IMG/VR virus record: IMGVR_UViG_2778261009_000005
Coordinates: 1 to 43,253 of that record
DNA: 43,253 nucleotides
From: a virus
Lineage: Duplodnaviria > Heunggongvirae > Uroviricota > Caudoviricetes
Direction: 5' to 3' (one strand)
The notes below the pieces were generated by a model. That model saw only the letters and a program-made list of their open reading frames with translations, was not told the origin of the DNA and did no database searches. Every line of letters starts with the position of its first letter. Within the stretch, counting starts at the first letter, position 1. The translations under genes and the position numbers were made by a program. Of the stretch, positions 32,649 through 33,920 are shown one piece after another.

Positions 32649-33030
32649 GGCCGTTGTGGTGGCCGGTACTGAATCTCCGGCATACGGTGCAGCCAATTAG
32701 GACTACGGACGATCACCGCTCGCGAAAGGGAAGATTTGCGGCCGCATTTCCCTAACATCCAAGAAAGCTATCGCATCAGCCTGCGAATCCACCACAACGT
32801 TGAGAACACTGGTTGTCACGCTGCAACGCAACATTTATTCGTAGATTGGGATATGACCCCGTTACGCCAGTGTTCTCAACGTTGTAGTGCCGGTTACGGT
32901 TCCGGCCAGGCCTCTTCCTCAACGGGGTGTTCTCCGTACGGACTACCGTTTATTGGTCGTTCCTGCGGTTTATGTTGTGAAGCCAGATGCTTATCTTCTG
33001 GTTGCTTCAAAGAGCTGCACTTCATCACAA

Positions 33031-33107
33031 CGGTAAGGGTACTTCGTAGGGATTCGAACCCTCTGCCAAGCACGGCGATCTCCGACGTCGCAAAATACCC
33101 TTACCTG
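33031..33107 (-). ncRNA. tRNA-like element (perfect T-arm GGGTTCGAATCCC inside a 10-17 bp terminal stem; no canonical cloverleaf found)
   Basis: Minus strand GGTAAGGGTA...AGAGGGTTCGAATCCCT...TACCCTTACC; lies between tRNA-Ser and tRNA-Thr. Confidence 0.3.
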
Positions 33108-33113
33108 TTGTGT

Positions 33114-33189
33114 TGGTGCCGGTTAACGGACTCGAACCGCTGACATCCTGCTTACAAGGCAGGCGCTCTACCAACTGAGCTAAACCGGC
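33114..33189 (-). tRNA. tRNA-Thr (anticodon UGU)
   Basis: Minus strand GCCGGTTTAGCTCAGTTGGTAGAGCGCCTGCCTTGTAAGCAGGATGTCAGCGGTTCGAGTCCGTTAACCGGCACCA. Confidence 0.8.
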
Positions 33190-33191
33190 AT

Positions 33192-33266
33192 TGGCGATGG
33201 TGGATGGATTCGAACCACCGACCAGTTGGTTAACAGCCAACTGCTCTACCGCTGAGCTACACCATC
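33192..33266 (-). tRNA. tRNA-Asn (anticodon GUU)
   Basis: Minus strand GATGGTGTAGCTCAGCGGTAGAGCAGTTGGCTGTTAACCAACTGGTCGGTGGTTCGAATCCATCCACCATCGCCA. Confidence 0.8.
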
Positions 33267-33920
33267 ACTTGCCGGGTACGTCTCCGGCGAGGGCTTCCAC
33301 CTCCGTATGCTTTTCGGCGCACCGCGCCCTGGCTGCAATTCGGTAACAGGGGATGCACAACCCTGGCTTCCAGCGTGATTAGCGCCTTCAGCATGACGGG
33401 ATATACCCGTAGTAGGACGTTATCTTCAAATTGCTAAAAGCAATTGCTGTTACGCAGAATGAAAAAGGACGTAACAGGTAAGGACGCTGACCAAAAAGAT
33501 GGCCTCTTCTCGCTCATCTGGTTAATCGAACCAGCGCCCTTACCTGTTGTGCCTCCCCGTTCCCTAATACACAGACGGGGACACTCTGCGGTCGATTTTT
33601 TGACGGGGGACGACTCATACCCCGTGGCGTCTGGCTTCTTAGGCCGCTACCATCATCAGATCATCGTTTGCATTTACTTTAATGGTCAGTTTATAAACCG
33701 CCGCAAAGTCGCTAACCATGACGAAAACCCTGAAAAAACGCCCACCCGAAGATGGGCAAACTGGAAGCTCGTAACGCACTTCGGCGTTGCCACTTAGGCG
33801 CATGGTCAACCTGGCAACTCGGTGGTTTGTCTGGGAGGACTAGGCCCAGCCATGCTTACCGCCGCGCCTGTCGCGGCTAACAGCTAAATCGCTCTATAAA
33901 TCACGATTCATTGAGGCGAT

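Follow-up and report, generated by a model that had tools for sequence, protein, structure and literature searches.

RNA hairpins with a conserved stem and exchangeable interior in the ban operon leader of a P1-like phage, and their relation to a mapped RNase III site in prophage Qin

The non-coding leader of the ban operon was analysed in a phage of the P1/P7/D6-like type, IMG/VR record IMGVR_UViG_2778261009_000005, of which positions 1 to 43,253 constitute the window referred to throughout. Four hairpins of this leader, designated A to D, belong to one family of enterobacterial-phage RNA hairpins, in which a conserved stem (here called the clamp) encloses a hypervariable interior (the cargo). 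A first-pass annotation had reported three inverted or recurring repeats around a tRNA-like element at 32790-33552; it treated them as separate oddities, with the third unlinked to the first two, and overlooked that the transcribed strand is the minus strand. All of these repeats turned out to be copies of a single element type. A relative of this element in prophage Qin of Escherichia coli K-12 coincides with a mapped cut by ribonuclease III (RNase III), and we consider it reasonably probable that the hairpins are RNase III processing cassettes punctuating a transcript rich in tRNAs and small RNAs (sRNAs). The four hairpins and the recognisable parts of their cargos are as follows.

33470-33551, minus strand: hairpin A, with 5' arm CACAAC-A-GGUAAGGGCGCUG (33551-33532) and 3' arm CAGCGUCCUUACC-UGUUACG (33489-33470), the base being partly degenerate.
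33534-33518, minus strand: T-loop-like hairpin CUGG-UUCGAUUAA-CCAG in the cargo of hairpin A.
33026-33112, minus strand: hairpin B, with 5' arm CACAAC-A-GGUAAGGGUA(UUUU) and 3' arm (GAAG)UACCCUUACC-GUUGUG.
33048-33091, minus strand: tRNA-elbow-like cargo of hairpin B, made of a D-arm-like hairpin, a 12-nucleotide (nt) linker, a T-arm and an unpaired AC 3' of the T-stem.
33091-33075, minus strand: D-arm-like hairpin GCGA-CGUCGGAGA-UCGC of this cargo, with GG in its loop.
33062-33048, minus strand: T-arm AGGG-UUCGAAU-CCCU of this cargo.
32790-32889, minus strand: hairpin C, of the GUUGAG subtype, CUACAAC-GUUGAGAACACUGG ... CCAGUGUUCUCAAC-GUUGUGG, with no bulge.
Within 32790-32889, minus strand: cargo motif CGUA-ACGGGGUCAUAUCCCAAUC-UACG of hairpin C, which recurs on other stems.
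32448-32561, minus strand: hairpin D, GUGCAAC-G-UUAAGAGUAUUUGG ... CCAAGUGCUCUUACC-AUUGCGG, outside the interval first reported.

All three primary observations behind these hairpins were reproduced. The T-arm AGGG-TTCGAAT-CCCT, placed by the first-pass annotation at about 33045-33065, is present on the minus strand at 33062-33048, and the 10-bp repeat said to enclose it consists of GGTAAGGGTA (33032-33041) and TACCCTTACC (33096-33105). Its suggested extension is real and corresponds to CACAAC (33026-33031) facing GTTGTG (33107-33112), with one bulged base at 33106. The perfect 18-bp repeat also exists, at 32795-32812 with 32867-32884, the coordinate given earlier for its first arm being 1 nt off; it lengthens to 23 nt at 96% complementarity (32790-32812 with 32867-32889) and forms the stem of hairpin C. 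Likewise, the 15-mer CCCTTACCTGTTGTG occurs twice, at 33098-33112 and at 33537-33551 (a shift of 1 nt from the reported second copy), without further exact copies in the 43-kb window, and on the minus strand these two copies belong to the 5' arms of hairpins B and A, respectively. Hairpin A is conserved in P1-like contigs, hairpin B starts 2 nt past the CCA of tRNA-Thr, and hairpin D, which has a C.A mismatch in its base, is located directly after a tRNA-Ser-like gene and directly before an STnc100-like module. When compared with 200 dinucleotide shuffles, the minus-strand RNA of hairpins B, A and C folded with z-scores of -4.9, -6.1 and -8.3, respectively, no shuffle being as stable (0/200 in each case), and each of the three was more stable when folded from the minus strand than from the plus strand. 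The z-score of hairpin D was -3.75.

The family stem covers about 19-20 bp. It starts from a base of 6 bp, CACAAC/GUUGUG, in most cases followed by a single bulged nt on the 5' side, and continues for about 13 bp. Above the bulge, two G-C pairs and a frequent U.U or A.C mismatch at the third pair are followed by about 10 pairs, the upper stem being of type GGUAAGRGCAYUG or GUUGAG. The base and bulge known from the Qin relative were recognised in hairpin A (with a degenerate 3' base), B, C (no bulge) and D (C.A mismatch in the base). Between near-identical arms, 84 distinct interiors with lengths between 29 and 170 nt were found. At the site where the window, P1 and D6 have the tRNA-like cargo, P7 displays an unrelated cargo of 29 nt between identical flanks. 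Several other cargos contain T-arm-like hairpins, and a motif GCGUR-ACGG-hairpin-AAUC-YACGC is common to hairpin C and other cargos, with compensatory changes. One cargo (L268 7921-7967, minus strand, also found in L293) shows the complete core of a minimal type I hammerhead, CUGACGAG-stem II-CGAAAC-stem III-GUC, although its score with the Rfam model Hammerhead_1 (24.7 bits, E = 7e-4) is below the gathering threshold (GA) of 34. Judged by such features, other cargos look functional as well.

Members of the family are widespread among enterobacterial phages. The 5'-arm 20-mer CACAACAGGTAAGRGCAYTG was present in more than 120 IMG/VR contigs among the matches listed, where less than one is expected by chance, and in 47 species genomes; the credible finds among the latter all come from Enterobacterales. 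Exact clamp 20-mers were also observed on tiny contigs of about 1x coverage assigned to unrelated bacteria (Pseudoxanthomonas, Psychrobacter, Oceanobacillus, Enterococcus; e.g. L313, L322, L324, L329, L337, L345), and these copies suggest contaminating DNA from phages or prophages of enterobacteria. By eye, the 5' arm resembles the 16S rRNA 3' region and the tRNA D-arm sequence GGUAGAGCA, a probably coincidental likeness. In phage Cyrano, the Asn, Thr and Ser tRNA genes are adjacent and the 465-nt spacer is missing, yet hairpins are found on the same base (CACAACGUUGAG...CUCAACGUUGUG), one compensatory variant of the base being CACAGC...GCUGUG. Sensitive BLAST searches resolved this spacer into a chain of separable modules, each of which occurs alone in non-coding gaps of unrelated phages, including Uetakevirus BUCT554, Sashavirus, the P22-like SPN9CC (just upstream of gene N), Citrobacter phage phiNP and Klebsiella phage BUCT_49532. 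Every spacer module is closed by a helix built from CACAAC/GUUGUG.

Covariance-model searches, recommended by the first-pass annotation, were run with Rfam at GA and at E<=10 for the window, for hairpin B by itself and for 23 related loci, and no family spans the hairpins. The hairpin family was not found in the GenBank annotations of related phages either. Comparative alignment for compensatory changes, also recommended there, showed the paired regions to be conserved. Among 44 distinct arm pairs (alignment A1), 97% of the cells pair and 15 of the 19 stem pairs vary on both sides, so that the helix is kept by compensatory changes across copies; all five measures exceeded those of 500/500 shuffles, and slid controls paired at 33-59%. 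When loci were collected by the 5' arm only, 108 out of 111 had a 3' arm complementary at 17 or more of 19 positions within 300 nt downstream, against 6 out of 111 in the upstream control.

The 1-nt bulge lends the element an asymmetry from which its orientation can be read. A crude and noisy test based on flanking open reading frames (ORFs), which gave 36 same/same against 8 opposite/opposite cases, was replaced by one based on tRNA genes: in 30 out of 30 distinct-cargo hairpins with a tRNA within 600 nt, from at least eight gene contexts, the bulged arm was 5' on the tRNA strand. The G.U wobbles (e.g. CAUUG/CAGUG) likewise occur on the tRNA strand. In the window, the direction of transcription is fixed by the genuine tRNA genes on the minus strand. 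Positions 32400-34000 are matched by P7 over 100% at 93% identity, by D6 over 85% at 96% and by P1 over 79% at 96%, and in P1 and P7 the homologous stretch is the C1-controlled leader of the ban operon. The hairpin interval lies within this non-coding leader, which is transcribed from the minus strand, with the hairpins on the tRNA strand and downstream of Pban. Comparable positions were seen elsewhere: in CUS-3 and HK629-type lambdoid phages, a hairpin of the late leader immediately follows PR'/tR', with Q on one side and the holin gene on the other. In L197 one hairpin comes directly after a promoter, and another runs into a tRNA-Arg, whose nucleotides 1-3 are also the final 3 nt of the hairpin. 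This fixed orientation and the leader context favour a function in the transcript and not as DNA, since a transposable palindrome should insert both ways.

The link with RNase III comes from prophage Qin, whose dicF flanks are homologous to the DicF-like and STnc100-like parts of the window. A family member was located by eye just upstream of dicF, CAUAAC-G-CGAAAGCGCAUGG[45 nt]CCGUGCGCUUCCG-GUUGUG (L312 19174-19257); a scan of Qin for exact CACAAC hairpins returned none, as the Qin base is CATAAC. It has been reported that a 190-nt DicF species is lost in an rnc mutant and that its 5' end maps to 813/814, and that the upstream RNA containing ydfA is undetectable without RNase III (PMC10448788). 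With the transcription start site (TSS) placed at about L312 18438/9 from the dicBp promoter (TTGACC-17-TAATCT), position 813/814 corresponds to L312 19251|19252, within the CCG|GUUGUG of the 3' arm, and the distance from this point to the terminator U-tract is 189-190 nt. The mapped end and the size of the RNA are independent published numbers and both converge on the stem of the Qin hairpin. The two pairs beside the cut are G-C/C-G, which agrees with the in vivo preference of RNase III between staggered cuts (PMC6212723). A second RNase III cut produces the 72-nt DicF (PMC9438474); it is located at about L312 19454, within the closing stem of the Qin STnc100-like module (L312 19451-19586). 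The earlier suggestion of 'processing signals or an unrecognised structured RNA' is supported: the repeats pair into hairpins that are transcribed and belong to a conserved family without Rfam match, a relative of which is a mapped RNase III site.

That the window's own hairpins are cut by RNase III, and at which sites, we infer from family membership. The clamp stem would be a substrate of the host RNase III, with a cut at the junction of base and upper stem (...CC|GUUGUG in the 3' arm), and the polycistronic RNA would be split three ways, into an upstream piece, a cargo hairpin and a downstream piece. After a cut at hairpin B, tRNA-Thr-CCA would retain some 9 nt of 3' tail, short enough for trimming by exonucleases, the excised cargo hairpin would keep a stem of about 12 bp, and the downstream RNA would begin at GUUGUG. 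The conserved arms would in addition act as homology joints for cargo swaps between phages. In a broader form, which we put forward only tentatively, these would be modular RNA cassettes, in which an RNase III-cleavable clamp frees dozens of interchangeable small RNAs from early or late leader transcripts; these RNAs would be traded between phages of unrelated families by arm recombination and would act on host machinery. It is equally tentative that tRNA-elbow mimics, the hammerhead-like ribozyme and other recurrent motifs exemplify such cargos, some of which might serve as decoys, either for enzymes that process or modify tRNAs or for defence nucleases that attack them.

Several points weigh against processing by RNase III as the role of these hairpins. 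Cleavage has been documented for the Qin copy alone, which is of a different stem subtype with arms about 80% identical to those of the main type, and the position of that cut depends on a promoter-inferred TSS, though it agrees with the 190-nt size. The 44 arm pairs were harvested by a pairing criterion, which introduces some circularity, and the collection by the 5' arm only was run as an offset to it. The stem sequence is conserved beyond the known needs of RNase III, which could mean a sequence-specific partner or a recent horizontal spread. Conservation also extends to cargo modules, which are met on different stems, so the stem may be only a scaffold for functional small RNAs. Finally, knock-down of plp, upl and trnT in P1 by CRISPR interference (CRISPRi) caused no plaque defect (PMC10695390).

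The cargo of hairpin B has the T-arm with a GTTCRANYC loop and the D-loop with GG expected of a tRNA, but a full cloverleaf was not recovered: cmscan of 33015-33118 at E<=10 gave no match to the tRNA model (RF00005), the best matches being to the T-arm alone and to mascRNA at 14.2 bits. The pair beside GCGA covaries (C-G, G-C, U.G), which makes the D-like stem continuous with the long stem, a junction topology unlike that of a tRNA. The cargo is a mimic of the D-loop/T-loop elbow and no tRNA gene. Its sequence hardly varies, and it has been found on five or more stems in other phages, including one unrelated in sequence (L385); a stem lacking the CACAAC base is among them (L385, L022, L381). 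A mini-cloverleaf (acceptor ACGUCG/CGAAGU, derived from the mascRNA alignment) was considered and is broken by the BUCT554 and L022 variants. An identity with YrlA/Y RNA (RF02553) was also rejected, YrlA matches being confined to genuine tRNAs (22 bits) with none on hairpin B. No Ro60/TROVE-like protein was found among the four Pfam-scanned ORFs of 30500-34600, the remainder of the window not having been searched for rsr/Ro60, and P1-like phages are not known to carry rsr. The Ro-binding motif GNCGAAN0-1G, as defined in PMC4201824, is absent from the 5' strand of hairpin B.

An alternative explanation is that the cargo is the point, the stems being scaffolds that deliver small RNAs onto host factors and the RNase III cut being incidental or a release step. 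The cargo could then be a decoy aimed at an enzyme that binds tRNA or at a defence nuclease directed against tRNA; both the explanation and such a target appear doubtful to us. The constancy of the tRNA-like cargo on its different stems, including the one without CACAAC base, the recurrence of the hairpin C motif on other stems with compensatory changes, the T-arm-like hairpins in several further cargos and the hammerhead-like cargo with all core positions count in its favour, and bacterial Y RNAs provide a precedent as tRNA-mimic modules on long stems (PMC4201824). However, no target or partner is identifiable, many of the 84 cargo types have no recognisable motif, and P7 replaced the cargo of hairpin B by an unrelated one with nothing else changed. 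The GUUGUG/CACAAC closing helices shared by the M3, M5 and STnc100-like modules (listed below) are also left unexplained. It is possible to regard the hairpins as elements acting at the DNA level instead, either as mobile palindromes similar to miniature inverted-repeat transposable elements (MITEs) or to attC sites, or as recombination 'boundary sequences', folding in single-stranded DNA. Conserved arms with a variable interior, copies in unrelated phage types and the 'boundary sequence' annotation of features flanking the CUS-3 hairpin are in line with this, as are the cargo swaps between identical flanks and the chimeric hairpins (L029, L032), although recombination at the arms most plausibly follows from their being conserved. 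CACAAC...GTTGTG is also near the attC R''/R' boxes RYYYAAC...GTTRRRY, but ACACAAC/GTTGTGA has one mismatch in each box, no cassette ORFs are present between sites and orientation is tied to transcription. A MITE is contradicted by the single orientation, the hypervariable interior and the lack of visible flank duplications. Since orientation relative to tRNA genes is strict (30/30), hairpins are embedded in promoter-to-gene leaders, target-site duplications were not seen at the flanks, no integron integrase or matching transposase was noted in these phages (the integrase itself was not searched for) and the Qin copy is cut as RNA, we hold a DNA element to be unlikely.

The first-pass annotation had also offered degenerate tRNA genes, and decay from a longer tRNA array would account for the canonical T-arm and the GG-containing D-like loop of hairpin B, for a 14-nt remnant resembling a tRNA-Thr 3' end ahead of hairpin C, and for the location of the region inside a tRNA cluster to which a relative adds a tRNA-Tyr. 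This origin is very unlikely for the hairpins. None of them received a tRNA call by ARAGORN or Rfam, even at E = 10; hairpin B lacks an anticodon arm and an acceptor stem, and at its non-tRNA junction the D-like stem runs on into the long stem and AC follows the T-stem; its elbow-like module is highly conserved instead of decaying, and is unrelated to the P7 cargo; and hairpins A, C and D, like most cargos, have no tRNA features. Protein coding on the plus strand deserves next to no credence, even though plp (putative lipoprotein) and upl are annotated in P1 (L001 2567-3136) and the window has a plus-strand ORF of 135 amino acids at 32736-33143. The Plp frame is shifted in P7 at the cargo swap and is split over three frames, with an in-frame stop, in Ro157c2YLVW; it lacks a Pfam match and its last 14 residues come from reading tRNA-Thr in antisense; upl is missing from the window, and pieces of the interval occur singly in non-coding gaps of unrelated phages. 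No credible genes were found between 33939 and 32298, and the plp and upl annotations of P1 are probably spurious.

Processing by RNase III remains the reading that we prefer. In the leader, on the minus strand, the order is an operator palindrome, a DicF-like region with a terminator, tRNA-Asn, tRNA-Thr, the tRNA-Ser-like gene and the STnc100-like element, followed by small ORFs, tRNA-Ile2(CAT) and ban. In addition to the hairpins, the features are these.

33733-33950, minus strand: start of the transcription unit, with the C1 operator/Pban palindrome (33919-33950), a dicF-upstream-like and DicF-like region, and a terminator.
33757-33733, minus strand: intrinsic terminator GCCCAUCUUCGGGUGGGCGUUUUUU, which closes the DicF-like RNA.
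33266-33192, minus strand: tRNA-Asn(GUU), a genuine tRNA gene.
33189-33114, minus strand: tRNA-Thr(UGU), a genuine tRNA gene.
32968-33031, minus strand: module M3, GUUGUGAUGAAG ... CCAGAAGAUAAGCAUCUGG CUUCA-CAAC, the GUUGUG being common to M3 and the 3' arm of hairpin B.
32887-32971, minus strand: module M3b, also in Citrobacter phage phiNP, which ends in a tRNA-Thr-3'-end-like remnant.
32900-32887, minus strand: this remnant, ACCGUAACCGGCAC, 14 nt without CCA, abutting hairpin C.
32652-32799, minus strand: module M5, closed by CGUUGUGGUGG ... CCACCACAACG (11 bp) and beginning GUGGAUUCGCAGGCUGAUGCG, with an STnc100-like architecture.
32562-32648, minus strand: tRNA-Ser(UGA)-like gene, atypical, called by ARAGORN and located between M5 and hairpin D.
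32332-32452, minus strand: STnc100-like module (39.4 bits, below the GA of 47), a homologue of the Qin dicF-dicB spacer.

The strong terminator at 33757-33733 comes some 180 nt after Pban and ahead of ban and every tRNA gene, so that expression of the remaining operon needs read-through or antitermination. A module at 33639-33768 (minus strand) is common to phage Cyrano and an IMG/VR contig (AAACUGACCA..AAAUGCAAACGA..GGUAGCGGCCUAA; L005 3353-3534, L250); weak matches to the permuted and beta tmRNA models (25.7 and 16.6 bits, E = 0.015-0.02) recur in its homologues and are probably not significant. ARAGORN calls were limited to Met(CAT), Ser(TGA), Thr and Asn. The tRNA-Ser-like gene has an acceptor of 9 bp and a T-stem of 4 bp; the Rfam tRNA model does not call it, whereas the tRNA-Sec model gives 43.1 bits, below its GA of 47. 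It is kept in D6, where the record cites tRNAscan-SE without an amino-acid call, and in Cyrano, and about 83% identity is found in rV5-like phages. In some P1-like relatives an extra tRNA-Tyr(GUA) or tRNA-Arg(UCU) is inserted between tRNA-Asn and tRNA-Thr (Ro157c2YLVW L004 2316-2402; L184, L160, L109), so the tRNA set of the leader is variable, like the hairpin cargos.

Among the spacer modules, M3 also occupies a Sashavirus non-coding gap and, in P22-like phages, a site immediately ahead of gene N, and its closing stem covaries (GAUGCGAUG/CAUCGCAUC in SPN9CC). Relatives of M5 were present in Klebsiella phage BUCT_49532, Enterobacter phage BUCT554 and CUS-3. The remnant ACCGUAACCGGCAC also precedes clamp hairpins in Sashavirus and phiNP (L007, L009), and these copies suggest that the clamp may have spread jointly with the end of a tRNA-Thr gene. 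Further downstream, at 31254-32298 (minus strand), a membrane-like ORF of 78 amino acids and a 275-aa SPFH/Band 7 protein (Pfam E = 1.6e-30) are located where P1 has tciA/tciB; the homologous ORF pair of phage Ro157c2YLVW is annotated as 'putative serine protease'.

Searches of the literature on the ban operon, on tRNA stem-loops and on boundary sequences revealed no account of the hairpin family. In particular, we could not find described that the hairpin cut by RNase III in Qin belongs to a large family in which the stem is conserved and the cargo varies, that its members flank tRNAs and sRNAs in P1-like, lambdoid, P22-like and other enterobacterial phages, or that the P1 ban leader carries three or four copies of it. 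These data recast plp, upl and an 'empty' leader of about 1.6 kb in P1 as a defined chain of RNA modules, and tie a lone RNase III site upstream of DicF to a family represented in hundreds of phage and prophage contigs of Enterobacterales. They also provide a testable route by which phage tRNAs and sRNAs could be freed from polycistronic transcripts, while the shared arms offer a mechanism for the exchange of small RNAs across phage families. The combination of conserved stem and exchangeable cargo, some of it tRNA-like or ribozyme-like, suggests a reservoir of uncharacterised phage small RNAs.

Hairpins cut by RNase III in phage transcripts are classic. In T7 early mRNA and in the N-leader and sib of lambda, hairpins of polycistronic transcripts are cut by the host enzyme, and their remnants affect stability and translation. 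These sites differ from the present family by their short apical or internal loops, and have neither a sequence family across phages nor exchangeable cargo. Species I RNA of T4, a stable non-tRNA RNA encoded amid the T4 tRNA genes, is cleaved by RNase III as well, but has no sequence relation to the hairpins and represents a single gene of T-even phages and not a modular family. The Correia/NEMIS elements of Neisseria are repeated palindromes whose transcripts form long hairpins cut by RNase III; they are, however, MITEs with a conserved interior, a TA duplication and both orientations, whereas the family of the window has a variable interior and a fixed orientation. With attC sites and with lambdoid 'boundary sequences', a concept reportedly due to Clark (2001), the family shares conserved ...AAC/GTT... 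boxes, a variable centre, strand-specific folding with extrahelical bases, and mosaic junctions. The cassettes of attC sites are genes, whereas those described here are non-coding RNAs of 70-210 nt, and the bsq features of CUS-3 flank the hairpin and are not the hairpin itself.

Bacterial Y RNAs (YrlA, Yrn1) are similar to hairpin B in combining a long terminal stem with a T-arm-like/D-arm-like elbow mimic, and in Yrn1 D-like features also come ahead of the T arm (PMC4201824). In the family of the window, the tRNA-like module is just one among many cargos. The RNase III cut upstream of dicF in Qin is said to have been known since 1990 (Faubladier). In published work, this site is a cleavage position only and not a member of a repeat family (PMC10448788). 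It differs from the window in being a single copy without tRNAs, in its subtype, GAAAGCGCA rather than GGUAAGAGCA, and in its cargo. The Qin 5' arm matches the main stem type at 13 of 20 positions and has four differences from type-3 arms (L113, L197). The Qin hairpin shares with the family the CAYAAC/GUUGUG base, the 1-nt 5' bulge, the two G-C pairs, the mismatch at the third pair, the 13-bp upper stem and a cargo, here of 45 nt, and it is found in the same kind of leader, next to DicF-like and STnc100-like parts homologous to those of the window.

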